A DNA stretch of 64,000 nt from Euglena gracilis (Eukaryota), in contig CP154954.1 in assembly GCA_039621445.1 (NCBI GenBank), forward strand, positions 8,620,634 to 8,684,633, written 5' to 3'. The notes under the pieces are model-generated. The model had not been told where the DNA came from and ran no database searches. It saw only the letters and a program-made list of their open reading frames with translations. The position numbers were made by a program, and so were the translations under genes. Below are positions 3,901-63,922 of the stretch, one piece after another. The stretch's first letter is position 1. Each line of letters starts with the position of its first letter.

Positions 3901-6900
3901 TCCATGTGTGTGTGTGTGTGTGTGTGTGTGTGGAGGTGTCCACACCCTGCCCCACCGTCCGTGGCCCCCTGGCCCCCGACCGTCGTGTACTTCCACGGCG
4001 ACGGCGAACAGCTGGGCTGGACCCCGGTGCACATCGCAGAGCATTTTGTGCGGCGGGCAGGCTGTCCCTTCCCCTGCCCGGGCGGAAAATTGCGGAACTG
4101 TCCAAAGGTGTAATGAATTTTACGGAAACCCGCCGGAATTGGTGATTTTTTTCCCGAAGAGTTGCGGGGGATGGCCACATTCAACTGCGTCAAAGCTGAA
4201 TATTTTCCTTAAAAGCTATTTTTGGGCAGTTTTTATTTTTGGACAAGCTTTATTTTTTTGTGTGTGTGTATTGTTAGGTCCTGATTAGGAATGCCCACCC
4301 CAATTAGGAATGGAGGTAGGGGGGGGGGCAGGCCCACGGTGGCCACTGCCAGGGTGATTACTGCGTCACGGGTGCCGGCCCCTGCAGCTCGGGTTTGCTG
4401 TTACCGACACTTCACATGCCACAGTCTTCACATGTGGAAGACTGTCTCTGCCGTGTTGGAGCGCGGGCAAAATGAACGTAATTTTTGCTTTTTTTAAATG
4501 TTTTTCGATTTTTGGCGAAATTTGAGTTTGTTTGTGTGTGTTTTTTTGTTTTATGTTTATTTGCCTCTCTATTTTCAGAGGGTCATGCATCGCAAACCCC
4601 TGGGGGGGTATTGCAGACCCCCCCAGGGTGGGGGGCTGCACCAGCCAGCCCCAATTTGGGCCAGCCCAGCCGCAGCAGCCCCCTCCCGGGGATGCTGCTA
4701 GCTGTTGACCAGCCCCTTTTCTTCTGGGTGCAGCCGAAAATTTTGAAAGCAGTGTTCAAAAAAGGCCAAAAAAGGTGATTTTGGGGTGTTTTGGGCGTTG
4801 TTTTTTTTTTTTGAAAGATGGGGTTGTCAGTGCCTTGCAGGACATTTTTTAGGCAATTGTCCGAATTTGGCCTCGCCCGGCTCAGCTCAGTTCCAGCTGG
4901 GGTCCACCTCCCCTGCCCCCCCCCCCCCCCCCCCCCAGCCCAAATTTCTAACCAGCCCAAATTTCCAGCCCCAGCCCAGCAATCCCACCGGGTCCTTAAA
5001 GAGATGTACTGATGTATGCTGAAGGTCCATGCTTGAGCTCCCCCCTGCAACTATTCCAACTATTCAGGGCCCCGCGCAAAAGTAGCGCCCGCCCCCTGTG
5101 CGGAAGTATCCTGATGGGGTTTCCACGAGGTTTCCAGGGACGCCTGGCGGCGCGGCTGCGGATTCCTGGCGGTGGAGTTCCCCGGCTACGGATTGCCCAG
5201 GCTTGCACGCTTTGTCAGGGTGGGGGGGATTGCTTACCTGGGCAGGCACCCAGATCCGATGCCTGGGGGACACTTGGCCAACAGTGCCTTCGAACTTGGC
5301 GACCAAGACACAGAAAGCTCAGAAAAAGCCAAATTTGGACGGTTTTGGCCCGCGACCAGGCAGGCAGCGACCTCTGAAGTGCCTGCCTGCCTCGGCACTC
5401 CAGGGTCCCGCAACCCAACGCGCTTGGCTAGCTTTTGGACAAGTTAAACTGTGGATTTTGGAAGAGTGGAAAGTCGGGTCCAGCCCGGCCGGAGGCCGGG
5501 CCAGCCAACTGGGCTGCCCAGCTCACCTATCCCTGCATTTTCTCCCCTCATCAAAGCTTCCTCCATCACAGCCCCAGCCTTGATCTAGCTCCATCCATCA
5601 AAATGTCGAAAATGGCAAAAACGTTTTTTTTCAAAATGGAAATAGAAAATTTTGTTTTTCATCGACCCAGCCCAGCCCAGCCCCCTCCAGCCCCAGACCT
5701 CCCCCCCCTCCTATCCCCCCGGGGGGTCCAGCCAGCAGCTCATTTCCAGCCAGCAGCCTTTTTGCCAGCCGGAGGCTGGACCCCCCCCCCCCAGGGAGGG
5801 GTCTTTAAGAACCCTCCGGTGGGAGAGCACTTCAAACTGGCACAGCGGGCCTGCCCCCGGCCAAGGAGGGCACCCCGTCGGAGGCGAACTGCTACCGCGT
5901 CGCGCGCGCGGCGCTGGGCCACCTCGTCGCGCCGCAGCCGTACGGCCTCGGGGTGCCGAAGCACACCGTCATCCTGGTGGGCCACTCCCTCGGGTGCGGC
6001 GTGGCGCTGGAGATGTCCCTGCAGGGCTTCGGCGGCCGCATGGTGTCGTTCCCCCTCCAGTTCTGCCCATTTGGAAAGGGACCCTCGGAGAAGACGGTTG
6101 CGTTGCCTCAAATCTTGGGAGACAATATCTCACATATTTTTTCAAATTTTAGCCGGCAGTTTGTTTCTGTGTCTTCATTATTGTCATTTGCCGTCATTGC
6201 TGTTACTACAACACACATACACGCGCCCCCCCCCCCCCGCCCGCCGCCCACCCACCCCTGCACCCACACACACACCCACACCCGTGCACACACAGACAAC
6301 ACACAACTCCCACTCCCCCACACCCGGGTGGCAACGCGCCGCCTCATCTGCAGGTGCTGATCTCGCCATTCACGTCCGTGCTGGACATGCTGCGCCTCAA
6401 GCTATGGCCCCTCTCCCTCCTCCTCCCCCTGTCCATGCTCTGCACCGACAAGTTCGACAACCTGCACAAGGCCAGCCGCCCAGGAGCCACACAAACATGA
6501 CAGACGTCCTTGTCGCCCAGCACAAAGGCGGGGGACTCTTATCGGGTTCTTCATGTTGGCTTTCGTGCATGTGGCAGTCGCGTGTGGTTGTTTGAACCAC
6601 CAACCAGTGTTTGAAGTGGCGGATGCCATGTGCATGCACCCTGCAGTGGAATCTTTAATCCAAAGGCTGCATTATGGTTTCACTTCCTGGCACGTTATTT
6701 GATTTTTGTCGCTGATGCCACAGCCTTCGATTTATCATTTTAATGTATTGTCCATCTGAGTCTGTGTGTATTGTCCATATGTGTCTATTTTCAATTTTTC
6801 ATGTTGTATATTATTGATTTGTGGCGCTTTATTTGCCCCTAGATGGACCCATCAAATGAAATCCAATAATGATTTTGGATAACATTAAAAGAATATAAAT

Positions 6901-9677
6901 ACATACTTGTGTAAGTAATATGCTCATATAAATGTATAACCGCATACAGCACATTTTGGAGTATCAAGACTTTAAAAGTGCCCACTACCGGCCTAATCTG
7001 AACTCGTCAGCTGGAGAGACTGATGTGCCCCTGCCCCTGGGTCACCATCCCGACTTGTGTCATCCACAGCAAGTCGGACGTTCAGGTGCCTGTCACCCGG
7101 AGCCTCGGTTGCCGATGCCATTCGTCTGGATGAGGAGCGGCCAAGGACCAGGTGTCAGAAATATCCATCCAAATTTTGATGGTAATTTTTGTTGCCTCCA
7201 TCCCAACACACCGACACACGCCGACATTTACCGTGGATCCTGACACAGCCGGCAGTGAGCTTTTGTTTCCTTCACCTCCGCGAACCCACTCAACCTTTTT
7301 TTTTATCACCGCGGTGGTCAATTTCTATCACCCCCCCCCCCCCGGAACCTGCCGCTGTTTAAAGGCGTTGACAGTTCAAAACGCCAGCTTCTGAAAAATG
7401 AATTCAACTTCCTACTAAAAATACATACGTAAGAATAAAATTGCACATTAATCATTGCTGTGCGCGTGCACAGCTATTTATTTGTTCATGCATTATATCT
7501 TGCATCGGCATATGGACGCAAAATCAGACCCAAGTATATGTTCACACCCCTTCCCCGTTTGAGTTTGGAAACGACCAGATTGGCGGGAGAGTCCAACTCA
7601 TTAGCAGGCCAACCAAAGGTCCTGGGACAGAGAGAACACACCAACCTTTTTGCTCGCGCAGAGAGATTTCGGCAAAGAGCACAAAAAAAATCCGGTGCCA
7701 GATGGACACTGTCGGCGATTCCCCCCACAGGGAGGGGGTTCCGGAGCCAAAACCCAGTCAGTCACTCCAACAAAACCTATCAGGCACCCGGGGGGGGGGG
7801 GTAGGTTCGGGGGGGGGGGAATGATGGGAATGATAGGAATGGGTGACAGGTTTTTGAAAAGTGACAGATTTTCTGAATTTTTTTTCTGAAAGTGAAACTT
7901 TTTGAAAGTGTAAGCGATCCCCTCCTTCCCCCCGTCGGGGGGGGGTCGGTAAGCAATGGGACGGTCTGGACCCTATCCCCACCTGACAGACCTCCCACCC
8001 CCACCTCCATCCACCCCCACGCGTGACACCCATGACAGCCACCGTCGGGTGCTGTCATGGTCAGGGCGGTATGGGAATCCCCGAGATCCTAGGGAGGGGG
8101 GGTCCGACCCCCCTCCAGGCCTTCCTGTACAGCGCCGGTGATGGTTGCCGCCCGATGTCGCTCGGGAGGCCATCCCCCCCTCCCGCCTGTGCCGCGGCGC
8201 CGCCCACGACATGGGCCTGCGGGTAGCCCAAGCCATCCCCAACGCCCAGACGTGCGTGCTGGACGGCTGCGGGGGTGACATCTTCGCCCATCCGCGGCCA
8301 GCGTGGGCCACCTCGGCGTTCTGGGTGCCGTGTCATGGGTGGAGGGGCGGGGTGAGCACGGGTTGCTCTTTCGACACCTTGATTCAAAGGGGAAAACCAC
8401 ATTTGTGTAAATAAATAATGATCCAGAGAAAATTAAAACTTGAAATGAAAGAAATATTTGATAGCTTTCCTGTGATTACTCTATTTCTTGTTTCATTCAA
8501 GACAATTCAAGCAATGTACTGGACGTCTTCTGCTCCCTATTTTGATATATATTTAGACTGGATCAGGGTGTGCTTAAGGAAGTTTACCCCATCCCTGGGG
8601 GGTTCAGCCAGTTATTTCTTGTTTCATTCAAGACAATTCAAGCAATGTACTGGACGTCTTCTGCTCCCTATTTTGATATATATTTAGACTGGATCAGGGT
8701 GTGCTTAAGGAAGTTTACCCCATCCCTGGGGGGTTCAGCCAGCTTGCAGCCTTTTGCCAGCCTCGGACCCCCACCCCCCGCATCAACAAGCTTTATTTAT
8801 TTTGGGTAACGGAATTTTGGCTTTCAGGGTGCAAAAGTAGGCCAAAATCTGAAGAAAATCTGAGAAAATGGGTGTAAAGGGCTAGTGTGAGCAAATTTTT
8901 GTCGGAAAAAAAAAGATTTTTACACAATTGGCCGTTTTTTTGCAGCATTTGCAGTTTCCAGACCTTGGTATCCGGTTCGACCTCCAGTCGGGGTCTAGTT
9001 CCAGCCGGGGAACCCCAATGGGGAGGGGGGGGTCAGCCAGCAACATTTTTCCTGCCAGCCCAGTTTTTCCAGTGGTCGGTAAGCCAGGCCCTTTGACTGA
9101 ACGATTCGGTGAAAGTGTCTGGTGTCATTTGGGGCATTCAAACAACGGATTTCGTGAGCGGCTGAGTGGCCATTAACCTCCTTGAGTGACGAACAGAAAC
9201 TGCCTGCTGCCATCGTCGGCACCTTGCGACAGTTTGGCCTTGTTGCGGATCCTGACAACTTTCAGTGAGGGAAGGTCGGAAACGTTGGTTGGAGGTGTAG
9301 TCAAACGGCCAGTGTCCCTCCTCTCCCGAGGATACAGCGGGGGGGGGGGGAATGTGCGGAGCGCATACTTTGTGGATATTTCGCACATTTAAGGCAAAAA
9401 TTAGCACATATTTTGTTTTGCGTGCATACCCCCCCCGGAGGATGAAAGTATGTTGAAATGGCCATCTGGTGGGGGTGCCAGGGATGCTGTCAGTGTCGCC
9501 AGGTCTGGCGAACCTGTCAGGGTCCCTGGGGGAGTGGGCAGTCGCCCCTGCTGCCCTCGGCTTGCCCACCTGGTGGACCTCGTGCTGACCTTCGCGCACG
9601 GGGCCAGCGACAGCGTGCAGGAGCCGGGGAACCCCCTCGTCCTGCAGTGGACCGCCGCCCCCAGCGCGCGGGTGTAA
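925..9677 (+). CDS. ABHD13/BEM46/ABHD17-like alpha/beta hydrolase, multi-exon
   Basis: Firm exons 3978-4054, 5152-5194, 5859-6042, 6354-6477, 7039-7094, 8208-8295, 9559-9677 (TAA) join in frame: PTVVYFHGDGE...FLAVEFPGYGLAKEGTPSE...ILVGHSLGCGVA...VLISPFTS...DKFDN...VIHSKSDVQVPVDMG. Upstream exons (925-1017, 1267-1338, 2281-~2430 with LWRFQRRLIFAP, ~2889-2959) are less certain. One GT-AG intron (6043-6353); the others are non-GT-AG. Confidence 0.85.
1480..1840. repeat. (TA)n followed by (CT)n low-complexity tract
   Basis: Direct inspection. Confidence 0.9.
2665..2810 (+). repeat. Dispersed ~150-175 bp repeat family of unknown class
   Basis: Core ACAGCAAACTGGGCC.GAAGCGAAGTTGGCGCCGGCC recurs at ~19710-20085 (split by an insert), ~20690-20760, ~39780-39840 and inverted at ~48385-48557. 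Confidence 0.8.
8482..8742. repeat. Tandem duplication of a 130-bp unit
   Basis: 8482-8611 matches 8613-8742; the unit spans flank plus the left end of a MITE (CAGGGTGTGCTTAAGG). Confidence 0.9.
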
Positions 9678-10245: not shown

Positions 10246-13200
10246 GATGTCCGTGAAGGGTTGCCTGCTGAGGCATCCAGAGGGTGGAGTCTACATGCAC
10301 GTTGTGAAAAGTTTGAAAAAAAACGGCATGGCACACAGTTGTGATCCCCGGGTGCTTGAAGTGCGAAGAGCGGTACAGCTGGAGCCACCCAGGTGGGGGG
10401 GGTTGGGGGGATTGAGGGCAAGCCCAGGGACCTGTCCCAACGTGAGCAACGCCAGGCCCCACACTGCCGGGTACAGAAGGCAATGTTTATGGACATTGGG
10501 CTTAAGCACAATAGTTTTACCTTGCGGTTGAGCGCAAGTTAAAACATTTGCATTTAAGCGCAATGTATAACAGAAGCCCCAGAGCTTATGGGAGTCCCTC
10601 TGATGTGTTACGGTGCGTTGGGGGCCCACTCTGAACGGCCAGTTTGCAGGCTTGGTGAGGAAATACATTGCGTAAATCAGTTTCACGCTGCCCACGTACG
10701 CAATTGAATTTTGACCTCCGGTCGCTCCCCGACGATAGAAATGACTCAAGCCAGTGCTTTCTTAGACGGCCGGGAATGCACTTTTCACTTTCGGTGGTTT
10801 TTTGCGCACCTGCGCATTCTTTTGTGACCAAGTGTGTCGCCTTCACTTGACGGGGCGGCCGACCCGTCAGCTGAAACCCCTGGTACCAAAACTGGTACCA
10901 CTACCTTCGATCCCCGGGTTTTTTTCTGGGCAAACCGACTTTTTCCGTTTTGAAAAGGACGGTTTGGCACCTCCGCCGACCGAGGGAAAACCCCCGTCTG
11001 CCGAAGTGGGTGCGACACGAAACGCTGTTTAAGGCTTTATGTATTCTACCTTGCATTTCGGCGGAGTTTGGCGCAGTTTGACGGATTGGTTTGTGCAGGG
11101 GGGGGGGGAATGCAACTTGCATAATTTGCATTTTTTTTGCATAAAAATATTTTCCCCGGAAAAATTTTTGTAGTTGGTTGCCATATGTTTTGAATTTTTT
11201 TTGCATGTTTTTGCATTTTCTACATAAAATATTTTGCCCCGGAAAAAAATTTTGTTGTTGGTTGCCATGTTTATGGATTTTTTTTGCATTTTTTTTTTGC
11301 ATTTTGTAACTTTGTGACCTCTTTATTCTCCCGACAACTCTCTCTCTCTCTCCGCCAGACGCGCTATTCCCTTCCGTTATAACCGCGGCGAGGCTGGAGT
11401 TCCCTGACAACCACCACATCCACCCCCTCCATCCGGGGCCAGGGCGTCGCCTGAGCATCGGCGGCTTCATCCTGCCGCCAGAGCACCAAAAGCACGCCGT
11501 TCCTTTGGGGCCGAATTTACCGAATTGAATTAAATCAAATTAAAGGATTACATATCAAGGACATTATGCCCCGACATCGTTTGAGACGACGAGTCTCTTC
11601 AGAGTTCGTTGTTTTCATTCAGGGTTTCACTCGGCAAATGCTGAAAACCACGGGAAACGAAATTGCCAGCCGCCCGGAACGTTAAAACGCTAAAGCCAAA
11701 TGAAGACGCGGGCCAGCTTTCAAAAAAGAAAGATGAGGTGTCGCAGGTGAATGGCTGACCGGGGAGCTCCCACCCAGATTCAAACCGGAGAACAGCAAAC
11801 CCCCGCCAGTGGCCTTTCCGCCAGCCCAGCTTCTGGAGTGGGTCCTCGTCAGCGGCGCCCTGGCTGGGGCAGCAGGCAGCGCAGGCGACCCCCCCCCCTC
11901 GACACGGAGTCCCTGAGACGGGGCTCCCCCACCCTCCCCCACTGCAACTCTGGCCCCGCCGTTGCTGAGCGCGCTGAGGTCGTAAGGTTGCGCCGGGGAG
12001 GGGCTGCAGAGTTTTGACCCCTCCGATTAGTCTCCCCCCCGGTCCACACAACCTCCCCCCTACCATTTTTCTTTTAAAGGTCATCTTCTCGGAGAGCCTT
12101 TTGTGTGTGTATGTGTGTGCTTTCGTGATATGTGTCGAAAATTCAGACAACGTAGGAGCCAGGCTTCTTTTTAAGTCAGCAGACCCCCCCTGGGGGGGAG
12201 GGGGGTGGGTGGGTGGGTCCGGGCCGGACCCCCCCCCCCCCCCCCGGGGGTCCCACGCCGGAGGCGCTGGGTATACCTTTTCGGCGCGAAGCGCCGAATT
12301 TTTTTGAAATTTGCCTTTAACGGGCCCGATTTAGGGGGGTCCCCCCGGGGGGGTCCCGCGCCACCCTGGGTGGGTGCTGGGGACCCTCCCTCCCCCCCTC
12401 CCCCCGGGGGTCTTAAACAGAAGCCTGGTAGGAGCTTTTGAGCCTGATTTGGTGAGAGGTTGCTGTTTTTTTTTTTTCATGTGTATGCCTACAAGTTTGA
12501 CAGTGGACCCCCAGTATTAGATTGATATCAGATATCAATATCATCCTGGCGTTCACCTCTTTTTTTTCCCACCCCCAGCTGCAACCCGCTATTTTCTTCT
12601 GGGAACGGACACATAGGCTCTGGGTTGGTCTGCCGAAGGGTGCGAAGGGGGATTCTAAGTGGGGGAATGGTTGGTGGCTACTTTGCAACTTGAGACACAG
12701 CACTGTCATAGTGCCTGCTACCCCGCTCTGGCTCATTGGTGCTATTTCTTGGCATTACTACAATTGGTATGACCACTACTTCACGTTTGGTAATTAAGAA
12801 TGGTGTCCCCCCCCGGGGGGGGTTCTGCCCGCGCTCCACTTCGTGGGGACCTCAGCGATGGGGGTGTGGCGGACCCCTCGCTGTTCCCCCCGCCCTAGGT
12901 CGGGCCTACACCTCTCCGTCCTGGTCCCCCGAACAACAGGCGGTGACACGTCCTGGCGGTGGGCTTCCCAACGCCACATCTGTTGGTTAGCCCTGAGGCT
13001 GGGGGGGCGAATGGAAACCCTTCCTGTGAGTCCAGGATTGGTGGTTGCCACCCGTGCAAACCAGAGCAGTCCAAGGGGGGTGTTTGCCTTTTCTTTTCAG
13101 CGAAGACCACCTGTTATGGACTGCCCCAGGCCTGTGGACTCAGGCACGCAATCCAATTCCCCCCAAAAAGGCAAAAAAAATGAAACAAATGTCGAAACAA

Positions 13201-28200: not shown

Positions 28201-29225
28201 GCCAGAAAAGAATTCTGATAGAGGAACACAAAAATGAGGCCAAACCCACTGCACACACAGCAAGATCGCCAAACCACCCATCAAAAAAATGCGTTTTTCG
28301 GCACTTCATTTTCAGGCTGGGCACAATTCATTTCCAAGCATGCCGATTTTTTTCGCTGAGAAACTTCCAGTTGGTCCCCATTTTCTGGTGGATTATCCAT
28401 TGAATGTGCTGGAACAACAGAGTCCCAGCACATGTTTTAATTCACTTAAGGGCCTTGATTGTGGTTGATGGTTGATGGTTGCAATCCGGATACCTGTGGC
28501 TGGTGGGTGGCTGGGGTCGACCATCCCCACCTCATCCTGGCAGGGGGTGTGTATGACCCCTTATGGGATGTAACCCCCCCCCCCCAATAAGTGCACGGGT
28601 GCACGCATTTTAAGGACGTAGTTTCGGACCCCAAGGGATGCGCACTTATTAGGGCAGTTTGCACTTTTTAGGGCAAAGCCAAAAATACTGATGTTACCCC
28701 CACTCTTTTTCAATTTCCCCCCCAATTTTGTGATTTCAAGCTATGGGTCAAGTGATTATGTGTCAAATGTGTCAAATTTGGGCTTGGACGATAGAAATAT
28801 TTGGTCTGAGAAGGACAGTTCTGAGAATTGTGTGTTTTCCGACCTGAGATATGACAGTGATTTTGGGGGGTGCGCACTTTTTAGGGAGGTAGTTTCGGAC
28901 CCTTGGGGGATGCTCACTTATTAGGGCACTGTGCACAATTAGGGCACTGCGCACTTATTAGGGGGGGGGTTATATGACCAGGGGTTGCAGGAACCTGGCT
29001 GGTGGGGGGGGCGTACTGGAAAATGACCACCTAAGGGTTCCGCCTTTGTGATGTCTGTCCCATCTCTGTCATGATTTCTGATTTGTCGGGTGGCGTTCGA
29101 GCCTGCCCTGCAGCCCTGCAGCGACACAGACAGAGGAGGGGCTGACCATCTCCCGCTCTGCCTCCCAGGGCCCTTCTTCGGAGGTGTGTTGTGATGGAAG
29201 GCAGCCACTGTTGACAAGTTTCGAC
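10246..29225 (+). CDS. Probable fragmented gene(s) for an unidentified low-complexity protein; exon structure unresolved
   Basis: GC-rich exon-like islands at about 10246-10300, 11360-11475, 11800-12003, 12833-12980, 15365-15640, 20280-20540, 21130-21320, 23070-23300, 24050-24170, 25540-25640, 26650-26830 and 29090-29220. A pyrimidine tract plus CAG before 11360 and a CAG/CTG junction 12004-12832 favour the + strand. No family motif recognised. Confidence 0.3.
12160..12427. mobile_element. hAT-like MITE, CAGGCTTC family
   Basis: TIR CAGGCTTCTTTTTAAG / CTTAAACAGAAGCCTG; perfect TSD GTAGGAGC; interior resembles 30100-30388 and 32159-32352. Confidence 0.92.
13226..13647. mobile_element. hAT-like MITE with CCAGC-rich subtermini
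   Basis: TIR CAGGGCGTTG / CAACGCCCTG; perfect TSD CTGAGGAT. Confidence 0.88.
15017..15211. mobile_element. TA-flanked MITE with ACCTGTCAGG repeats
   Basis: Inverted ends (C)nGGAAACTGTCA / TGACAGTTTCCC(G)n flanked by TA; related fragments near 9490-9530, 39360-39760 and 50900-51240. Confidence 0.6.
16738..17035. repeat. (GT/GC)n compound microsatellite
   Basis: Direct inspection. Confidence 0.95.
20111..20245. mobile_element. hAT-like MITE
   Basis: Perfect 16-bp TIR CAGGGAATTTCTTAAG; flanks ACCTGGTGAC / ACCTGGTC (TSD with a small indel). Confidence 0.75.
20985..21098. mobile_element. 114-bp hAT-like MITE, CAGGGTTCGATA family
   Basis: Perfect 19-bp TIR CAGGGTTCGATATAAGGAG; perfect TSD TCCCTTGC. 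Confidence 0.92.
28571..28972. mobile_element. Probable TA-type MITE
   Basis: Inverted ends TAA(C)nAATAAGTGCAC / GCGCACTTATTA(G)nTTA; internal direct repeat at about 28618-28655 and 28889-28928. Confidence 0.55.
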
Positions 29226-29959: not shown

Positions 29960-52171
<22,212 letters not shown>

Positions 52172-55100
52172 AAGACCCGATCTCTTACGTGCCACCCTCC
52201 CCCCCCCCACCTGCCACAGAGCCGACCGACCTGTCAGCTCTGGCAGTTTTTCCCGGTGCCCGCAATTGCCTGGGAGGGCAGTAAGCACCAAAATGGTCTC
52301 TGGGAAGTATCATGCTGAAGTGCATTTGTTTAACCCCTCCACGTTTCCAAGCCTCTCGTGTACAAGAGTCATTAACCACAACCAAGGACGGTGTGTGAAC
52401 CTCCCCTTGGCGAAGGGAGCGATCCCTCAAAAGCCTGCTTTTGCAACTGTTTTGCGGCCAAGCGTTACAAAGACAGTGTTTTTTCTTTGGTGGCATTTCC
52501 AAGGGTCGGTTTGTGATTTCAAGTTTTTTTTGGGGCTGTGCATTCCCATCTTTCGGCTTACCAGTAAACCAGCGATCCAACTGATCCTGCGGGTGTATTT
52601 GTGTATAGGGGGCATCCCAACCAGAATGTGAACATGGCCAGAAGCCCTCAGGTATCCGCCTCGAGTGCAGTTGGCAGGCTTTTTTGGGCTTTTGTGGGCG
52701 TGAAAGAAGAAAAACTTAGAACTGGATCAGGCTTCTTTTTAAGGAAGTGGAGCCCCTGGACCCCGGGGGGAGGGGTGCTATGGGCAGGCAGGGGAGGGGG
52801 TAGGGCACTTTCGACCCCCCCAGGGTGGTTGGGTTTTGAGGTGGTAGTGGTATAGCAAACCCCCTGCCGAAGGCACTGGGGCCCGAAAATGGCCATTTTT
52901 CAAGGGAAATTTGCCTTGTTTGGCAGGCACCAGGGTCCAAAACCGACCCCACCCCCGGTGGGGTGGCTGCTATGAGCAGGCACCGCACAGCACAAGGCGC
53001 ACCCCCGGGGTTGGAAAAAAGAAGCCTGGGTTAGGTACAGGCACGTTGCAGTAGTGGAGGATATTCCTCAGTATACGTCATGACGAAACCAATCGTGGGG
53101 GGAGACTTGCCCGAGCTGCACGACAGGGACAACAGTGAATACCCACCTACATTGCCCATCGTCGTTCATCATTTTGGACACCATAGCCTCCACGTTGCCA
53201 GGAACCCTCTTTCTCCACACATTCTATTAACCACCATTCTGGTGGTTGATTTTATTTGGCTTGATTCCACTTCAAGCAGTCCACTTTCCAACCTGCAGCC
53301 CCGTTCTGTCTGCCGCAGGACGCTTTTCAGCTGTCCTCAGCGCCCTGTCCCCCCGTCCTACGTCCGCCCCCGTCCCCAGCGACCACTTGGATGGTGGCTC
53401 GCACCTGATGAATACCTGCCTGCAACCTTATTGCATCGAATTTGCCTCTCTTTGATTCTGAAGAATCAACCCAAAAATGAACTCAAAAGAACATGTCATT
53501 TTTTTGCTACAAATGTATTTCAAACAGAGTTGTCAGAGAATGGTCATTGTGATTGTCTTTCCATGATTTTCATGTTTTGCTGATGATGGAAGGATGTCTG
53601 CATGATATTTGTTGCTGTTGGTTTATTTGTTGTGTGCGTTATGTGGGTCTGTGTGTGTCCCTGTCTGTGGTGTGTGTTTTGTTACCCCCCCCACAATAAT
53701 ATTCCCCCCCCAGTTATTTGGTTCGCTGAAGTCGACCCTCAGGGGGGGGATATTATTGTGGGGGGGGAATATAGATTATTATATAAATTATTATATATTT
53801 TATATATTATGTGTATATAATGTTATTTGACAAATTTTTAATTAATTCTCTGGGCGTAAAAATTTGACTGCAAAATGCATTGTATCGATGTTGAATTTTG
53901 TTTTCAAAAAAGTGCAATTTGATGTTTTCCATTTGCACAAGATTATGGTTCCAGCTCCCAGGAAGACACAGTTTTTTTCTCGTGGTGGTCCGTGAAAAAA
54001 TGGGAGAGATATCATTTGGGTGCCCGAAGTCAGGTCTTGGGGAGAGAATATTATTTGGGAGGATATTATTTGGAGGGGTTTATATGTTGTGTGTGTGTGT
54101 GTGTGTGTTGTGTTGTAGGTGTGTGCACGCACAGAACCACATAAACACACCTACACCCACACGCACACACACACGCGCGCACACACAGAATATATTTTCA
54201 TGCGCGCACACCACAACATACACGAACACATTGTCACGCACTTGTTTACTTATATGTGTACACAGGTGAATGAAAGGAATGACCACTCGACACGCTTACA
54301 CACACCATGCATTCATCCCATTTTTGGGGAACCCCAAGAAACTCACTGCATGAGATCACAGACACACAGACACCCACACATATAGTCTCTCTCTCACACT
54401 CTCGCTCACTCAGTGACCCACCACCAAACCAAATTGACCATTCATTTTTTTTGAAATCCCATCAGATCGTGTTCATTTTCTTTATAAAAAGACGATTTTT
54501 GCATACACATCTGCTCCATGCAAATGCTCTTTTTGAAATTGACCAGCACAATCATGGGGTCTTTTTGGGGCCCCCTTTGAGGGGCCATTTCATTTCCATT
54601 TCACTCGTACAAAAAAAATGTGTTTAAAAAATGAAAATAAAATAAAAATCCCAGACCCGTAAGAAGAAATTGAAACAGAAAAAAATCATTGCATGCAAAA
54701 CAAAAGATTCTAGGAGGAAATGGCAGGGGAGGTCGAGCGTGGGGGGAAGGAATGAGGGAGGGATAGAAACAAGGAAAAAAGTAGAGAGGTAAGGAAGATG
54801 AAGGTAAGCATACGAAAATGAAGGAAAGTAGTAGTAGGGAAAGGCTGAGGGGATAAAGACCGAGGTTAAAGAGGGGTAAAAGAGGAAAAGAATGAAAAGA
54901 AGGGAAGAGAGAAAAAAATAACAAATCAGAAAAGGGGAAGGGGAAGACGAAGCAAAAAAAAACAGGGGGGGGGGTAAGGGGGGGGGGATGTACGGTCGGG
55001 GTCAGCGTTGCGGCGCGTATTCCTGTCATGCTTTTCCATGGCGCCTTTCGGTGCCAGGTGGACTTGTTAAAGAAATCTATGAAAATGCTGTGGTGGGTTG

Positions 55101-55271
55101 AGGGGGGGGGGCAGGAAGCTGTCAGGTCCTCAGTATTGGCCAACAATTTTGCAAGGTGCCTTTTTTGAAGAAAAAAAACTTTTTGGCTGGCTGCAATGTC
55201 CCATCACAGCCCAGGAAAATAAACTGTTGTTGCTTTTGTTGACCATTTAAACTTTTTGAAACTGCGGCGAC

Positions 55272-58200
55272 GTGGCCGCACCCCCACCGCCCCCCTGGCC
55301 CATCCCCCCGTACTACCCCACGGCCAGCCCCTTCCCCCTCCCGCGGCCCCGCGTCCTCAGCGAACCCCCTCCGTACTTCCTCTCGCCCCCCGTCTACTAC
55401 CCCGTCAACCCGTACTACACGTTTTACTGCCCAAGCGAACCGCCGCCCTGGTTCCACCCCATCTATGTCTGACCTCCCCATCACATCTGTCAATACAGCA
55501 ACCTGGTGTGTAGGCAAACACCCCTCAAAAAGGGTTTGATCTTGCTCTCAACAACCCTGATGAGAGCCAGGAGTGGGCAAATCACAGGTTGCACTGCCCA
55601 GACCAGTGCCGAATTTCGCTGACGTTGCGGGGAAAAAGTTGGTGTTCATCACCCAGAGATGGGTAGGCAGCTCCATTTTCTTTTTCCATTCATTTGTATT
55701 TTCCCCATTCTGTCCCCTTTCTGTTTCCTTGTTTCTTGCTTCGAACCCCTGCTTCGAATTTCCCACAACTTCGCCCCACCCCCCCATACACCAAGAAATG
55801 CCACCAGAGAAATCCCTGCGGCCCCTGCCATTGCTCCTTTCCTCTTTCCTCTTCCATCCTGGCTGCCTGCATCCCAGCCTCGATGCCACGTCATATGATC
55901 TCTCACCATTGGGGTCCTCTGCCTCAAACCTCTACCCGACTGTTCTTTGTCTGTGGCTCTGACGCGACACCCCTTCTCCTCTCATTTCCTGTCCAATGGC
56001 ACCTGATTGGTGGGTGGCCAGTAAACCCCATCGCCACAGGAGAAGTCAGCCAGAGTAAGCCTCCATAACACCCCCCCACACCGGGTGGGTAACATAAAAA
56101 AAACTTGCACCATAATTTTTTCCATTTTTCCGCCAGTTCCCCCGGGACTGGCTGAAAGTGGCCACCTGGCGCCGAAGGCGCCAACAAAATTTTGGCGGTT
56201 TGGCGAAAATCCATTGGCTTCGTCTTGGTCCGAGTGCCCCGAGTGTTATCAACTGACCATAAATTGAAGGTTACCATCCGACAACCCTGAACTGGTGGGG
56301 GGGAGGTCGTACGACCATGTGCCAAAAAGCAACCCAATTTTCAAAGCCATCTACAACCCCCGACCGGGGGGGTCGTACGCACCCCCTTCCCTGCAACCCC
56401 CAACTGGGGGGGTCTTTGGTTAGGCGTGGTCGGTGGACAAAGGGGGAGAGCTTCGACCCAAGGTCCGAATAGAAGCCTGTTGGTCGAAAACCGAGGGGTG
56501 CTTCTATTTGGGGTATGTTTTCCCCCTTCCCTTGTACACAGTGTGAAAAGGGGGGTGGAGTGTTTGGATTTGGACCAATGGTCAAAATCTGAGGGAGGGG
56601 CTTCTATTGGTGAGGTGCCACTATTCGGGTGGGGGTTTTCTATTCAGGGGGTTTCCCGTTGTGGGGTGGGGTGGGGTGGTGGGGTGGGGTGGTGAGTCGA
56701 CGCCCTCCTCTCTCCACCCGACAGGACCCTCATATGTATCGCCTCGGGCGACTCCTACTGGGCACCGCCCCCCCGCCCCACCTCGTCCCTGTGTTCTTCA
56801 CGAAGAAGCTCGTGCAGAAGCCGAAGGCGCCCCCGCCTGTCGCCATCCCACCGGAGGACTTGTGCCCGTCCCACTGCTCGGTTCCCAAGTCCTGCCACAC
56901 CAACCCCTTTCCCAGTAAAAAAAAACATACCAACTCATCCCACCCTCCGCATCTGTCCACACAAGCGCATTAATGTGCAACCTAACCCACACATACGACA
57001 CCCAAATGCACATGATATTTGTGCACAAACTCCCACTGCCAATACATTCACACATGCACTCCCTTCCAAAACTCTATCGCAAACGTCGTCCAAAATCCAG
57101 CGCGCAGGAACAATCCTTCATCTCTTGGGCGGTACGACGGCATTCTAAGCTGGCCGATCTGCTACAGTCGATAGTTTTGGCGGAACCTGTGCCGCAAACT
57201 GTACGCCTCACAGGATATTAATCCCGACCCGATTCCACCGGCCACGTCATTTCCTGGGGTTCCACTGTTCCACTTCGGGTTCGGTGCGGGGAGCATGGGG
57301 ACGGCCCGGTTTAGCCAACCTGCGGGACAACCCGGGGGCCAAGAAGAAGAAGCAGCGGCTGGGGCGGGGGATCAGCTCCAGTGTGTGCCCCGCTCTGCGG
57401 AGTGCCGTGCCGGGCGTGCGGGGGGTGGGGGGTGGAGGGGCTGGGGTGGGGGGGATGGGGTATGTCGAGGGTGCCAACGGGCTGGGGGGTCGGGGGTGGG
57501 GTGCTTGCTCCGCCTTGGAGGAGAATGGGGGGCCACCACGGGCTTTCCGGCAGGTTTTGGAAGGCCCTTGCCGGCCTGCCCCCCCCCCCCAAACGATAAC
57601 GTGTGACGAGGCATGGGGCAGTGGACTTGGGGGAGGGACCGAGACCCACACGCGAAATGGGAGTTTCCAAACCCGCCGACAAAACCATCCCAGGAAGGGG
57701 GAGGAGAAAATTTCACCCAACCGATTTTTGCTGCTTTTTTTTCAGCATCCTCTTGTTTACCTGGTTTTCCGGTCTTTGCCCCCCCACCCCAGGGGGTCAA
57801 GGCGCCAGAGAACAATTTCAGTTCCACTGCTTTGCTTTTGTGGCCATTACCTTGGACCCCAAAGGTTGGTTCCCTGGTGGGCGGCTTCCAAAAAAAGAGT
57901 GCTGGTTATTGGAAGAGTGGAATGGACAGGGGTTGGTACAGGGGTTGGTTGCAGGCTTGTGCTTAGTCGGGTGCCTACCCCACGGGGGGGGTGCTAGGGG
58001 CAGGCACCCCCCAAAATCCTACCCCCCCGGGGGGGGGTAGGGTTTTGGGGGTTGCGTGCCCCTAGCAGGCACCCCCCTCCGACCCCAACACCTTCGGCGC
58101 CGGGGGCCCGGAAAAGGCCATTTTCAATGAAATGAAATTTCTGGGTCCCCCCCCCCCGGACCCCAACCTCCCCCCCAGGGGGGTGTGCCTGCTGGGGGCA

Positions 58201-58894
58201 GGCACCCCATAGCACCCCCCACCCCCCTCCCCCCCCCAGTCGGTAAGCACAAGCATGGTTGGTTGTCCGGACCCTCCCCCCCCCCGCCTTCCCCCCCCCC
58301 TCATTTGGCATTCTCATTCTCATCCCCGCCAGGCCGCGGCCGGTCCTGCGGGCGGGGGCAGCGCCACGACACCAACCACCACCCGGGGCACCAGGGCGGC
58401 CAGATGCCCCTCCACCGCCAGCTGCCGAAGGTGTGAGAGGGCTCGGGGTGGGGGGAGGCTGAGAGGTCAGCTTGCCCGGTCTTGTGCCACTGGCGCTATT
58501 GGATGCCTGAGGTGGGAGGTGTCAATGGGTTTTTTTAAAATCAATTTTGCCCTTTTTGTTGTGTGGCGCATTTTTTTAGTTACCTGATTCTGGATGATGT
58601 GTGATGATCCCTCACGGTTCTCAATGCTGGGCGACCTCTCCGTATATTTTCTGCAGTCATTAAACCGTCCCCATTGTTCTCGAATATTACCCTCTTTGTG
58701 AGAATATCTGCAAAACCTTCGAAATCGCCCTGGGACTCAAAAATCCTCAACTTTTCTCGTGACCAACACGTGGGTGAAACAACATCGAGAACACATCAAA
58801 ATGGCTTCATGGCCACAAAATGACTCCATTGATGGTGCCGTTCCGTCGAAAGAATGTCGCTGACAGCCCCCCCCTCCCTGTGTCATTATCCCAG

Positions 58895-58940
<46 letters not shown>

Positions 58941-58984
58941 ACACACACCCCCCCCCCACACACACGCACGCACACACACACCCG

Positions 58985-59047
<63 letters not shown>

Positions 59048-59048
59048 G

Positions 59049-59114
<66 letters not shown>

Positions 59115-59116
59115 AA

Positions 59117-59160
<44 letters not shown>

Positions 59161-62100
59161 CACACACGCACGCACACGCCACACGCACCGCACCCGCCCG
59201 CCCCCCGCCGCCCCCCCCCCGCCCCCCGCCCCCCGCCCGCCCGCCCGCCCGCCCACCCACCCACCCCCCACCCACCCCACCCGCCCACCCACCACCCACC
59301 CACACCCCTCCACCCCACACACACACACACACACACACGCACGCCACACCCACCGCACCCACACCACACACACACACACACACACACACATACCCACACA
59401 CCCACACACAAACAGCACGCATCACACAGGTGGCAGCCACCATGGTCAGCTTTGAGGACCTCATGGTGTGCGTCACGCTGGGGGACCTCCAGGCGGCCAT
59501 CGACACCGGCCGCCTCAGCCCGCACGTCCCCATCACGCCCAAGGTGCTGGTGGACTGCAACATCATCCGTGAGCCCCGCTGGCCCGGCGTGCGGATCACC
59601 GGTGTGGAGTGGCTGCCGCGGTTTTTGCGACTTTTGAACCTCCACACGTGGGTGAGGCCAACCCATACCATGGCTTATGACCTCGCCCACCCCAGCAGTG
59701 GGGGGGATGACTGGTTTTTTGGCTCCAGCCGTGGTGGGGATGCTTCATTTTTGTTTGGATCGTTTGTGGCGACCCTCACCGTATTTGGGGCAGGCGTTCA
59801 CCCCTGCATTTCCCCCTTCTGCTGCTTCGTGTTGCTTCGTGCCGCAGCGGAGGGCTACGACTGGTTCTCCACCAAGGTCCACGTCGAGGCCAATTGGTGC
59901 GACCCGGACGCCTGCACCGTGATCGAGGCGCACGGCGGTACCGCTCGGTCGGTGTACCGGCCAGGCAGGACCCCAAGGGAGCCCCCCCTCCTGCCCCATG
60001 CACAGATAATGGGAATGTGGAATGAATGAAAAATATGAATACGACAATAAAAATGGGAAATACATGTCATTATTCTGCGTTGATCAGTGACCTGTCAAAC
60101 AAGGCGCAAAACACAGTTGTGTTTCGGTGTTTGTGCAGTTTTGTGATTTGGTGTATCTTTTGTGCCCCATGGGTGACACCGACAACGCAAAAATCGCAAC
60201 CCACTCAAGCAAATTTCTGTCCTTGTACTTTTCTCGCGATGTTTTCCCTCTTTTTATTTTGGTGAGCTGAAGGGTTACATTTTCATCTGCTGCCTTTTCG
60301 GTCTTGTCTGCATTCAGGATAAGGACTTTTACAACCAGGCACTGTGCAGCGAAGCATTTATCTGTGTTTTTTTTTGTGCTCTTCCTCGGCAAGACCAATC
60401 TGCCGCGAGATGTGATGCATTGAAGTTTTGTCCTTGTGGTGTGGTTTTGTGGGCAATGTTGGGCAAACCTTGTGGATGTTTCCAATGTGTGGTAAGGCTG
60501 CAGAATTGGTGTGTGGTGTTTTTGGTGTGACACATGTGACAAGTGCCATGGGCCCTGGCACAGACGCAGCACGTGTGGCATGTGTGGCACGTGTGACACA
60601 TGTGACACGTGACAACGTGTGGCACATGTGACACGTATGACACATGTGGCACGTGTGGCATATGCGACGTGTGTTCCCGGGCCGCAACCTGCCCAGCGCC
60701 TGGGGCCCCGACTACACGATGCGGCCGGAGCGGTTCGCGCCGGGCCTGGAGCCCAAGCCGCAGCTGCCACCGCCGCGGCTGTGGCACCGCTACGCCGAGG
60801 AGCGCATCCGGGGGTACCTCGTGGGCCAGGGGCAGCCCGTTGCCGAGCCGCCCACAGAGGACTGCCCCACCACTCAGGGGGGACCCCTACCCCCGGCAAG
60901 GGGAGGGGGTCTGGCAGACCATCTGCCCTAAAACCCCCCAAAAATACCCTCCCCCCAAAGTCAGACCCCCCCTGACGGTGCGAAGGGCTGGGGAGGGCAA
61001 AGAGTTTTCCGGAGAATTTACCAAAAACCCCAACCAGGCTCCTGCTTAAGGGATTGCAGCACCCCCGGTGGGGGGGGCTGGACTGCAGCTAGTCCAAATT
61101 TGGCTAGTGTGATTTCTAGCAGACCCCCCCCCCGGGGGGGTCTGCTAGCAGGGCTAGCTAGTGGAAAAAAATTTTCCAGTGACCGGCGCGAAGCACCGGA
61201 AATTTTTTTTGGGACCCCCCAAAATGGCCAAAAATGCTCGTTTTTGGCCATTTTTGGGAATTTTGGAACAAAATCAGCCAAAAACCTATTAAAAACCTCA
61301 TTTCCACCTGGGCGCGCAGCGCCGGAAGAAAATTTTTTTTCCAGTTGGGGGGACCCCCGGACCCCCCCCCCCCACCCCCGGGGGGAGGGGGGGTCTAGCG
61401 AGTCCATTTTTTTTCAAGTGTCTAGCTGATTTGCTAGCCAGTACCGCTTGGGGTCCTTAAGCAAAAGCCTGACCCCAATCTCGGGCAGGAAAGTGAAGAA
61501 ATTTCAAAAATAATTGGGGATTCTGAGTTCGAAAAAATAAATGCGAAAGTGTTCGAATTTCTCATGGCACGTGGTGCCGAAGGAGTTTTTGGGAACCTGG
61601 AAAACGATGCCTTTTTGGGCTGTAAGTCAAGAAAGTCCAAGAAATAAGTCCCACCCAAAATAATACGTCATCAGTAACGAACCCGAGAATAAGACCCGAG
61701 TATTATTTTAGAGGAGAGTTTACCCTTCCTTCCATCCCTCCAAAGTTTAAAAATTTGTGGCTGCAAGTCCATCGATTCAAGGACGGTTCACCAGCCACGT
61801 AAGTGGGCTTGCCTCCTCCCCCCGGTCTTAAGAAATGTCCCAGCTTCCAACCATCCAACCCACCCACGTACCAGCAGGAACACAGTTGGTGATATTTAAT
61901 TGTCACCATATTTACCCAGTTTTACCCACCCTTGAGTTTACAGCCAACAGCCTGAGAACTGGAAAATGGGGGGCACACATTTTGGGCAAATTTGGGGGAT
62001 TGTTAAAAAATCTGTTGACACGTGGACGAAAGAGTATCAAAATGATCACAATTCCTGGCAGAAGCACTGGACATATTCTGCCTCTTTGGATTTTTTTGTC

Positions 62101-63347
62101 CTTTTCTTTGCCTGCTCCTTTTTCCATTTTTTTTTCACCACTTGATTGCCTTTTTTTCATTTTTCTGGTTAAATTTCAGATAAAAATATCGGTAAAGATT
62201 TGCAATGTTTTCTCAGCTTTACTATGTTTGAACGCCTATCCGCAAAGGGATATTCTTTTGGTGACCTGACAAAGGCCTGGCCAAGAGGAGAAGTGGTATG
62301 AGTTGGTGGACCGGGTGACGTTCAAGTGGACACCTGTCCAGGCCGAACACTTTCCATGGTTCCCATGTCGTGTGTTTCTTGGCACTTGTTTGGAGAGGAC
62401 TCCCATTTGCTAATGAACCATTTGTATTTGAATCCTGTCCAGAAGTTTCCTATGAGAGGCGTTACGTGAAATTACAGCTTTCTGTGTTGCCCTTGAATAA
62501 ATCCTCCAGTTTTTCACATTTTTCCGCCCACGGCCACCAAATTGTTTCCAGTTTCGGCCAAAGCCACCAATGCTTTCCAGCTTCGTTCTCTCCTCCTGCC
62601 CACCAATTGCTAAACCTAAGGTTTCTTGTTTTCAAGTTTCGCCCATTCAACGGAGAGGTTGGCCTGCGTGCCGAGCTTCAGGCCCAGCGCGAAAAGCTCC
62701 TGGCGGAGGAGTTCGAGCGGCGGGAGGACGAGAAGCGCCAGCGCCGGCGCAAGGAGTGGGAGCGCCGCATGCTGGCCGAGATCCGGGCGATGAGCCCAGG
62801 GCCCGCCCCTCCCCCCCCATCTATCCCTTTGCGGCCAATGTCAGGGCGTCGCTTCAGCTGGAGTGGGCTCCCTGGAGAGTTAGGAGCGGTGACAGCCTTT
62901 GGCATGCCTCGACCAGGCTTGTGCTTAGTCGGGTGCCTACCCCACGGGGGGGGGGTGCTAGGGGCAGGCACCCCATAGCACCCGATCCGACCCCCCTCCC
63001 CAGGGGGGGGGTAGGGTTTTGGGGGGTGCCTGCCCCTAGCAGGCACCCCCCTCCGACCCCGGCGCAGAAGGCGCCGGGGGCCCAGAAAAGGCCATTTTCA
63101 ATGAAAATTTTCTGGGTCCCCCCCGGACCCCTATCCCCCCGGGGGGGGTGTGCCTGCTAGGGGCAGGCACCCTATAGCACCCACCCCCCCCTCCCCCCCG
63201 GTTGGTAAGCACAAGCATGGCCTCGACCCTCCCTCCTGCATCGATGGGTGTTGGAGGTGAAGGGTGGCCGGATTGTGACAGGTGTTTGCAAAACGACAGA
63301 AATGGGCCAATTGTGGCTCTGTAATATTAATATTAATATAATATTAA

Positions 63348-63407
<60 letters not shown>

Positions 63408-63922
63408 CATATACATATGGCGGGGGTGAACTTGTGGCCCCCCCCCTACACCCCCTTTATTTGAAGGAGTGCGCTTGCGCTAATTGGCTATGTTGCGCTA
63501 ACTGGCTATGTTGCGCAACCTGGCTACGTTGCGCAACGTAGCCAGGTAGCGCAAATTGGCATGTGCGCACCTAACCCTACTCCTTCAAATAAGGGGGGTG
63601 TAGGGGGGGGGCCCACAAGTTCACCCCCGCCATACATATATATATATATATGTATATACATACATACATATATATACATATATATATATAATATTAATAA
63701 TATTAATTTCGGGAACCCATAGGGGGGGGTCAGCCCACGGACGTTTTCCAGCCCGCCCAAAGTTTTCCAGTCCCTGAGCTGGAAGTCCCCCGAAGGATTT
63801 CTAAGCCTGCACGGCACTGCCCCCAAGCTGGCGTCGGCGGTGACGGCCCCTGCCCCCACCAGGCCTCGCAGCCGCTGGCGGGGGCCCCGGACGGGAAGGG
63901 GGAGGCCACTGCTGACGCCTGA
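55272..63922 (+). CDS. MRPL15: Mitochondrial ribosomal protein uL15m with N- and C-terminal extensions; 5' end unresolved
   Basis: uL15 motifs ANLRDNPGAKKKKQRLGRG, GRSCGRG, GHQGGQMPLHRQLPK, LGDLQAAIDTGRL...IT, IEAHGG, PERF...PPPRL..RY....RGYL. Exons ~55272-55466, 56725-~56862, ~57190-57280, ~57314-57380, 58333-58430, 59430-59601, 59848-~59958, ~60690-60829, 62285-62335, 62673-62793, 63825-63922 (TGA). GT-AG introns at 55467-56724, 57381-58332, 58431-59429, 59602-59847. Confidence 0.85.
57952..58257. mobile_element. 306-bp hAT-like MITE, copy 1
   Basis: TIR CAGGCTTGTGCTTA / TAAGCACAAGCATG; perfect TSD GTTGGTTG; closely similar to 62914-63219. Confidence 0.93.
58897..59410. repeat. (CA)n compound microsatellite
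   Basis: Direct inspection; lies in GT-AG intron 58431-59429. Confidence 0.95.
61035..61471. mobile_element. hAT-like MITE with GCTAG-rich subtermini
   Basis: CAGGCTCCTGCTTAAG / CTTAAGCAAAAGCCTG; TSD ACCCCAAC / ACCCCAAT. Confidence 0.82.
62914..63219. mobile_element. 306-bp hAT-like MITE, copy 2
   Basis: Same termini as 57952-58257; a different perfect TSD, GCCTCGAC. Confidence 0.93.
63419..63631. mobile_element. MITE with ~50-bp TIRs (GGC...GCC) embedded in a (TA)n tract
   Basis: GGCGGGGGTGAACTTGTGG...TTTGAAGGAGT is inverted at the right end; TA-rich flanks; a related half copy at ~38472-38620 also lies in (TA)n. Confidence 0.8.

Follow-up and report, generated by a model that had tools for sequence, protein, structure and literature searches.

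Introduction

The published nonconventional (NC) introns of euglenids have no GT-AG borders and carry paired ends, with CAG at positions +4 to +6, CTG at positions -8 to -6 and a purine at the start of the following exon. Their splicing code in Euglena, 5'-N3-CDG...CH'G-N5-6|R, was defined by knock-in mutagenesis (Nomura et al. 2025, PMC12501133). According to the accessible text of that study, splicing depends on the sequence of the triplets, on spacers of fixed length and on a purine as the first exon base, the cuts fall 3 nt upstream and 5 nt downstream of the paired CAG/CTG stem, every single substitution in CAG or CTG abolished splicing, and 61.2% of the NC introns of E. agilis fit the code, with 38.8% lying outside its strict form (PMC12501133). 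Here we describe the NC introns and miniature transposons of one 64,000-nucleotide stretch of Euglena gracilis nuclear DNA (contig CP154954.1, positions 8,620,634 to 8,684,633; hereafter the window, with coordinates counted from its first letter), in which two NC introns of a coding sequence coincide exactly with transposons of a type that duplicates 8 bp of its target.

An origin of NC introns from MITE-like (miniature inverted-repeat transposable element-like) sequences was proposed in 2014 (Milanowski et al., PMC3935182) and is repeated in a 2024 review, which mentions repeats resembling target-site duplications (PMC11282704); the genome-scale study of 2025 still calls the origin unclear and only suggests MITE-like elements (PMC12501133). 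Compared with these accounts, as far as their accessible parts go, the window shows concrete families with 8-bp duplications, present both as NC introns and as non-genic copies. Intron 4 of gapC in E. agilis ACOI 323 is a strain-specific and recently gained intron with eight-nucleotide direct repeats (Milanowski et al. 2016, PMC4770533), which are longer than those of older introns and were read as possible double-strand-break repair (PMC4770533). The young introns of the window resemble it in their presumed recent gain and eight-nucleotide direct repeats, whereas gapC intron 4 is a single case, with no related copies reported in the accessible text of that paper.

Transposon-derived spliceosomal introns, known as introners, occur in Micromonas, Aureococcus, dinoflagellates and Amoebophrya (PMC11282704). 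As described in the accessible parts of that review, DNA transposons with inverted ends and target duplications create them at new positions, in which they are like the elements reported here; they are removed by the spliceosome, and their splice sites come partly from the duplication, which is 3-5 nt in Amoebophrya (PMC11282704). The intron type of the window, in contrast, is non-GT-AG and stem-dependent.

Results

Two NC introns coincide with transposons in coding sequence

We mapped exons by placing transcript-derived proteins (EukProt P0004, P0005 and P0007) back on the window with a k-mer chain and a junction scan. Three genes on the + strand (925-9617, 29112-53385 and 56734-63919) contain 38 mapped introns, 6 of them GT/GC-AG compatible and 32 without a GT/GC-AG-compatible junction; these 32 NC introns from one 64-kb window are the sample for the results below. 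An earlier annotation made from the letters alone (the sequence-only reading) had proposed a decay series leading from fresh hAT transposons to ordinary NC introns, and had placed seven introns in it. The exon maps reproduce the borders and lengths that it gave for all seven, and equally their flank identities, counted over the 8 nt adjoining the CAG...CTG ends: 8/8, 7/8, 7/8, 6/8 and 6/8, and then 2/8 for the intron at 5195 and 3/8 for that at 6478.

The full 8/8 match belongs to NC intron #12 (30097..30393, + strand), whose 297 nt equal element 30100-30388 plus 8 nt, with the duplication ACCACAAC on both sides (8/8). It interrupts an EF-hand loop (DHN|GDG), whose sequence is whole again once the flanks are joined. 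The intron fits the published code fully (N3-CAG...CTG-N5|A), and other elements of the window have ends and interior parts in common with element 30100. NC intron #24 (45880..46228, + strand; 349 nt) likewise equals element 45883-46223 plus 8 nt, and its flanks, ACCTCGAC and ACCTCGAT, agree at 7/8, the sole mismatch being a synonymous third-position difference. Its right end is CAG, not CTG, which leaves an A-A mismatch in the terminal triplet and places the intron outside the published code; its 12-nt end CAGGGTTCGATA is common to element 20985-21098. The terminal stem is present in the folds of #12 (both minimum-free-energy and centroid) and of #24. As the sequence-only reading had remarked, these two clearest young introns are short.

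Four more NC introns keep 6 or 7 of the 8 flanking bases. Intron #5 (4055..5151, + strand) has flanks GCGGCGGG/GCGGCGCG (7/8) and ends CAGGC(T)GTCCC and GGGACGCCTG, with a 1-nt indel in the inverted repeat; intron #10 (8296..9558, + strand) has flanks TCCGCGGC/CCCTCGGC (6/8); and intron #36 (60830..62284, + strand) has flanks GCCAGGGG/GCCAAGAG (6/8) and the nested element 61035-61471 inside. All three fit the published code. The exon maps add a further 6/8 case, intron #23 (44245..45780, + strand; flanks CCAGCACC/CCAGCGCA in the 3+5 register), which has a perfect 7-nt direct repeat, CCCCAGC, at its junction, lacks CAG/CTG ends and does not fit the code. Both flank mismatches of #10 are synonymous changes at third codon positions in the exonic copy, and by our reading of the sequence so are three of the four mismatches in #10 and #36 together, as would be expected if the exonic copy drifts under coding constraint. 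At the other extreme, introns #6 (5195..5858, + strand) and #8 (6478..7038, + strand) have CAG...CTG ends in exact register and flanks that match at 2/8 and 3/8.

Flank identity among the NC introns

The comparison with chance was made with junctions fixed by the stem and not by the flanks: the donor was set 3 nt before the best terminal helix and the acceptor 5 nt after it, within the junctions that the protein allows. As a null, the left flank of each NC intron was paired with the right flanks of all other NC introns (992 pairs), which keeps the GC-rich coding context. The numbers of introns with 0 to 8 matches were 1, 5, 7, 7, 3, 3, 3, 2 and 1. Six of the 32 thus reach at least 6/8, where 0.84 would be expected (null P(≥6/8) = 0.026; binomial p = 1.6e-4), and the four beyond #12 and #24 retain flank similarity above chance as a group. 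By chance alone, 32 introns would give about 0.74 cases at exactly 6/8, 0.1 at 7/8 and about 0 at 8/8. The caution that GC-rich chance matches may inflate the 6-7/8 cases therefore holds for the lower class, in which one of the three introns may be a chance match, and does not extend to the 7/8 cases. Across the window, pairs of ends with an inverted-repeat identity of 9-10/14 have flanks of at least 6/8 in 26 cases against 14.7 expected (p = 0.004).

Miniature transposons of the window

We scanned every CAG...CTG pair 60-3500 nt apart in the whole window and scored the inverted repeat over the first 14 nt. At an inverted-repeat identity of at least 12/14, the flanks agreed at 8/8 in 7 pairs and at 7/8 in 2, and when the flanks were shifted 11 nt outwards as an offset control, 0 pairs matched. 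In a second scan with unconstrained termini, all 7 exact 8-bp duplications outside low-complexity and repeat-array sequence belonged to elements that start with CAGG. With the addition of 45883-46223 and 40118-40281, both at 7/8, the 64 kb contain 11 elements of 114-463 bp, 7 with an exact 8/8 duplication and 4 with 7/8. NC introns harbor six of them, three lie outside the mapped genes, and the remaining two interrupt coding exons, where they coincide exactly with introns #12 and #24. Since exons make up 5.5% of the window, two exonic elements among 11 (P(≥2) = 0.12) do not indicate a depletion of exonic insertions.

The elements have a common end plan: CAGG[G/C], 5-8 variable bases and a T-rich run that often ends in TTAAG, within inverted ends CAGG[G/C]...[C/G]CCTG of about 12-16 bp. 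Outside the mapped genes are element 12160..12427 (268 bp; duplication GTAGGAGC, 8/8), which has ends CAGGCTTCT(T/G)TTTAAG and is about 80% identical over 119 nt to element 30100; element 13226..13647 (422 bp; duplication CTGAGGAT, 8/8); and element 20985..21098 (114 bp; duplication TCCCTTGC, 8/8), whose inverted repeat is 14/14 (CAGGGTTCGATATA). Nested elements with exact duplications are 29226..29544 in NC intron #11 (319 bp; GTTTCGAC, 8/8), 32159..32352 in #13 (194 bp; GTATAAAC, 8/8), which has a 14/14 inverted repeat and belongs to the family of 12160 (93-96% identity in aligned pieces), and 47728..48190 in #26 (463 bp; GTGCTCAC, 8/8), in which the core between the inverted ends is a minisatellite with a 10-bp unit (CCATTTTGGG) repeated about 42 times. 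The other nested elements keep 7/8: 40118..40281 in #18 (164 bp; flanks CCCCCCAC/CCCTCCAC, in a C-rich context), 51417..51620 in #28 (204 bp; flanks TTGCCAAC/TTGCCGAC) and 61035..61471 in #36 (437 bp; flanks ACCCCAAC/ACCCCAAT).

Internal sequence is common to elements 12160, 32159, 30100 and 40118, and element 30100 also has a 13-nt end in common with 51417, as element 45883 has an end in common with 20985. The family of intron #12 thus has at least four related copies in the 64 kb of this one window, the rest of them in introns or outside the mapped genes and none in coding sequence. When the named introns were compared with the window by BLAST, only #12 had related copies, and the others matched low-complexity or nested pieces. 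A motif-pair scan of the window for more copies of the family with T-rich ends gave no new duplications and found only element 52728..53028, in the GT-AG-compatible intron #29, which has the same 13-nt ends as 12160 and 32159 and flanks of 3/8. It may be a rearranged copy, or its two ends may come from different insertions.

A hAT-like signature

The terminal inverted repeats of hAT elements have the consensus start YARNG, and duplications of about 8 bp are also made by the P, Merlin and some Mutator superfamilies, to which the window elements may alternatively belong. As in hAT elements, the short inverted ends of the window elements start with CAG; this holds for all 11, of which five or six start with CAGGG, fitting YARNG, and five with CAGGC, in which the fifth base is off. 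The eight non-exonic duplications give the target consensus GTnnnnAC, with T at position 2 in 6/8 (p = 0.004), A at position 7 in 6/8 (p = 0.003) and C at position 8 in 7/8 (p = 0.0009), in what is a small sample. Both the 8-bp duplication and this preference resemble the hAT element Hermes, whose target preference is given as nTnnnnAn in the accessible text of PMC10368747. The sequence-only reading had called the introns hAT insertions, and this much of the claim stands: there are real transposons with 8-bp duplications, hAT-like termini and a hAT-like target, and two of them are NC introns in coding sequence.

Splicing code, stem and spacer geometry

The full published code is fitted by 18 of the 32 NC introns, including #12, #5, #10 and #36 and excluding #24 and #23. 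Strict CAG...CTG ends with an intron length equal to the element length plus 8 were found in 14/32; the best terminal helix lies in the 3+5 register in 25/32, by our own reading of the helix scan, and the 3+5 cut is among the allowed junctions wherever the protein restricts the junction. The terminal triplets of the stem are exactly CAG/CTG in 13/32, and nine introns have triplets other than CAG that are perfectly paired: CAC/GTG (twice), CTG/CAG, CAT/ATG, CGG/CCG, CGC/GCG, CGT/ACG, TGG/CCA and CCA/TGG. The CTG/CAG, CGG/CCG and CGG/CTG variants of the euglenid NC code are also present in the window. The swapped triplets CTG...CAG are those of intron #2 (1332-2339), and such a swap was spliceable in the published assay, by its accessible text (PMC12501133); the other eight introns lie outside the published code.

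End pairing persists through the set, as the sequence-only reading had held: the median energy of the end duplexes is -19.9 kcal/mol, compared with -15.1 when partners are permuted (p = 6e-6), the excess is present in the 26 low-identity introns alone (p = 3.5e-5), and introns of high and low flank identity do not differ in it (p = 0.75). The further claim, that the introns are under selection only for the stem, proved too narrow. The published code, in its accessible description, also needs the triplets, the spacers and the exon-start purine (PMC12501133), and the 26 old introns have a strong C bias in their spacers, with C as the last intron base in 21/26 and at base +3 in 19/26; the first exon base is a purine in 23 of them.

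The two spacers add up to 3+5 = 8, the length of the element duplication. An insertion with a perfect duplication would therefore be restored to the pre-insertion mRNA wherever in the repeat the cut falls, and the reading frame would be kept even once the duplication decays. This link between spacer sum and duplication length was not found stated in the literature searched, as far as its accessible text goes and with subscription journals outside the search.

Intron lengths and internal repeats

The NC introns range from 193 to 3038 nt (n=32), and 6/32 contain an intact nested element. Intron #10 contains an exact (100%) tandem duplication of a 131-bp unit at 8482-8742. In intron #23, direct and inverted copies of a unit of about 43 bp (TCGAACCTCCTCGA-type) are densely arrayed over 44857-45480 and cause spurious inverted-repeat and flank matches in the scans. 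A 2.3-kb (ACAC)n microsatellite (34991-37272) fills most of intron #15 and accounts for the strong GC and AT skew at 34-38 kb; further long arrays are (TACC)x89 at 31340-31694 and (AAC)x52 at 43657-43811. In intron #38, a 213-bp palindromic element (63419-63631) with inverted arms of about 50 nt starting GGCGGGGGTGAACT lies within a (TA)n run. It has ATACATAT on both sides, a flank match that is ambiguous in the TA repeat, and has no CAG ends; it may be a different foldback element.

Genes of the window

Three exon translations of the window each match an E. gracilis transcript protein of EukProt at 100% identity. Gene A (925..9617, + strand) encodes an alpha/beta-hydrolase in 11 exons, with 10 introns (9 NC, 1 GT-AG compatible); it matches EG_transcript_20395 (P0004, 316 aa) at 100%, and its largest exon has the Pfam domain Abhydrolase_6. 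Gene B (29112..53385, + strand) encodes an EF-hand plus PIP5K protein in 20 mapped exons with 19 introns (17 NC) and corresponds to EG_transcript_7280 (P0005, 565 aa), with the Pfam domains EF-hand and PIP5K on its exons. The EF-hand exons (about 30 kb) and the PIP5K exons (about 43-50 kb) thus belong to a single gene that spans 24 kb or more, has at least 19 introns and encodes the single protein P0005; the last 39 aa of P0005, which are proline-rich, could not be placed on the window. Gene D (56734..63919, + strand) encodes a ribosomal L15/L27A-like protein in 10 exons with 9 introns (6 NC, 3 GT-AG compatible) and matches EG_transcript_16116 (P0007, 318 aa; Pfam PF00828). The 95-aa database protein P0006 (60641-60925) is exon 7 of gene D read through into both adjoining introns, which makes it a mis-called protein derived from genomic or unspliced sequence.

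The conceptual coding sequences differ from the transcript proteins at 0 residues in gene A, 3/523 in gene B (R35K, V428I and L457V, window versus P0005) and 1/318 in gene D. All three are stop-free and in frame after excision of element plus 8 nt. A Pfam scan of the 450 longest of 1,076 six-frame open reading frames (at least 35 aa, with a low-complexity filter) recovered Abhydrolase_6, EF-hand, PIP5K and Ribosomal_L27A, and otherwise weak matches below the cut-off; Rfam gave 0 matches on the whole window. The interval 9700-29000 (about 19 kb between genes A and B) had no Pfam match on either strand and carries three intact miniature transposons.

Discussion

We consider it probable, at about 0.7, that hAT-like miniature elements became NC introns; the young end of the series is evident, and we infer the same descent for the remaining 26 NC introns. 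Non-autonomous hAT-like miniature transposons would be active now, or would have been so recently, in the nuclear DNA of E. gracilis. The NC system, with the cut positions given in the accessible text of the mutagenesis study, would pair the CAG/CTG stem and cut 3 nt upstream and 5 nt downstream of it, which would remove the element and exactly 8 nt; with an exonic insertion and its 8-bp duplication treated in this way, the original reading frame would be restored. The introns at 30097-30393 and 45880-46228 would be two such insertions in the EF-hand/PIP5K gene, and the four others with 6-7 of the 8 duplicated bases would be older cases. The duplication would decay after insertion; what would be kept are the stem, triplets of the CAG/CTG type, the lengths of the spacers and the exon-start purine, and the introns would also enlarge by nested insertions. 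The other 26 NC introns have the same architecture, and their flank similarity would have been lost wholly; descent from such elements is, we suggest, the most economical reading of them.

Splicing of a hAT element out of RNA would have a counterpart in maize. Ds is a hAT element, and Giroux et al. reportedly found in 1994 that it can be spliced out of pre-mRNA. The contrast is in the sites used, cryptic GT-AG sites in maize Ds and, in Euglena, removal by the NC system measuring from the stem.

The proposed decay series itself fared unevenly. Its young end (8, 7 and 6 of 8) is real, and its older steps carry no flank signal. Flank identity, which the sequence-only reading had proposed to correlate with inverted-repeat length among other things, showed no correlation with stem score. 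The introns of high identity measure 297, 349, 1097, 1263, 1455 and 1536 nt, and the median of the rest is 913 nt. Only #12 and #24 have ends in common with other elements, which is the direction that a decay series predicts, in two cases. A pure-death model with steady influx, in which most introns keep some duplicated bases, was rejected (c ≥ 8, p < 0.01), and a weaker model of the same kind (c = 4-6) is compatible with the data, so that 32 introns give low power. That most NC introns are aged hAT insertions is accordingly a plausible claim: 26/32 carry no flank signal, and their descent is argued from shared architecture.

Several observations weigh against the descent of NC introns from hAT-like elements. 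The other 26 NC introns have a mean flank identity of 2.58 against 2.57 in the null; the 4-5/8 classes are not enriched among the introns (6 observed, 7.4 expected), nor is there an excess of 4-5/8 flanks window-wide; and flank identity is uncorrelated with intron length (rho -0.03) and with stem score (rho 0.05). Element 52728-53028 has intact ends, and its flanks match at only 3/8. No transposase domain was found by Pfam in the 450 longest open reading frames, in which the window elements are unlike the hAT elements Hermes and Ac/Ds, and the superfamily assignment is consequently based on duplication length, termini and target. In the stems of the 32 NC introns, counted over their first 12 positions, G:U and A:C mispairs are about equally frequent (27 versus 25), so that this comparison gives no sign of selection on the RNA strand. 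Three residues differ between P0005 and this allele, and one of these lies 5 residues away from the 30100 insertion, which means that the transcript may come from another allele or copy and that splicing of the elements from this allele is deduced. The CAG...CAG ends of intron #24 correspond to a change with which the published test intron was no longer spliced, by the accessible text (PMC12501133). Finally, the sample is one 64-kb window with 32 introns.

Alternatively, the NC introns may form two populations: most would have arisen otherwise (through reinsertion of excised circular introns at the RNA level, repair of double-strand breaks or conversion of conventional introns), and the CAG/CTG transposons would be a recent and minor contributor, tolerated because it happens to fit a pre-existing splicing code. 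Flank identity is indeed bimodal, with 6 introns at 6-8/8 and 26 indistinguishable from the null; the rejection of steady-influx decay at c ≥ 8 and the restriction of common ends to #12 and #24 point the same way, and, in the accessible parts of the literature, NC introns are excised as circles and a conversion from conventional introns has been proposed (PMC11282704, PMC3935182). Against this account stands the equality of the 3+5 geometry and the duplication length. The five-base end CAGG[G/C] is common to the fresh elements and many old introns, and T is enriched at the reconstructed target position 2 of the old introns (10/26 against a background of 0.165, p = 0.006). The full loss of an 8-nt signal is, besides, what old insertions would show, and the weaker steady-state model (c = 4-6) is compatible with the data. 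We therefore regard separate origins as unlikely, though deserving of serious weight. More improbable is that this allele is a disabled or polymorphic one in which element 30100, and perhaps 45883, stays unspliced, and that the continuous transcript comes from an allele without it. The R35K difference next to the insertion and the two further residues of P0005 would fit this, as would the break of the experimentally defined CAG/CTG rule in #24 (PMC12501133); yet #12 conforms to the published code in every respect, and none of the 20 exons mapped for gene B in this allele is disrupted or out of frame. For #24, the flanks (7/8) and the mutated end imply that the insertion has some age, and still the reading frame around it has not decayed; the 38.8% of E. 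agilis NC introns that are likewise outside the strict code (PMC12501133, accessible text) make its deviation less telling.

Two simpler explanations of the flanking repeats have very little in their favor. Intron gain by double-strand-break repair, with direct repeats as its footprints and no transposition, was offered for the E. agilis gapC intron in the accessible text of PMC4770533, and is hard to reconcile with the many non-exonic sites at which these ends, this repeat length of 8 bp and related interiors are found again, or with the defined target preference of the elements. Chance matching in GC-rich coding sequence may account for one of the three 6/8 introns, and it gains something from intron #23, which lacks CAG/CTG ends, and from element 40118, which lies within a C-rich run. 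As a general explanation it is equally far-fetched: the excess at ≥6/8 is significant, the expectations at 7/8 and 8/8 already refute it for those classes, and nine non-exonic elements combine 7-8/8 flanks with long inverted repeats, where offset controls gave 0.

The window is a concrete instance of the published transposon-origin hypothesis. What appears to be new is the identification of element families, their hAT-like signature and the equality of the spacer sum and the duplication length. A link between Euglena introns and hAT elements or 8-bp duplications was not found in the literature, in a search that left out subscription-only journals. The origin of euglenid NC introns has been in question since the 1990s, and in the window, as a transposon origin would predict, recognizable families of transposons with 8-bp duplications are found as ordinary repeats and also as exact introns of coding sequence. 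The measured cut positions (3+5 nt) match the duplication length as well, and together these findings make the transposon-origin hypothesis directly testable. More tentatively, and with slightly less than even odds in our estimate, NC splicing may be an RNA-level excision system matched to hAT insertions, and most NC introns genome-wide may descend from hAT-like elements. If so, an exonic hAT-type miniature element landing in a ...Y|R... target would be born as a working intron, which would explain the co-dominant position of NC introns in Euglena and how the euglenid lineage can carry transposon insertions in exons without harm.

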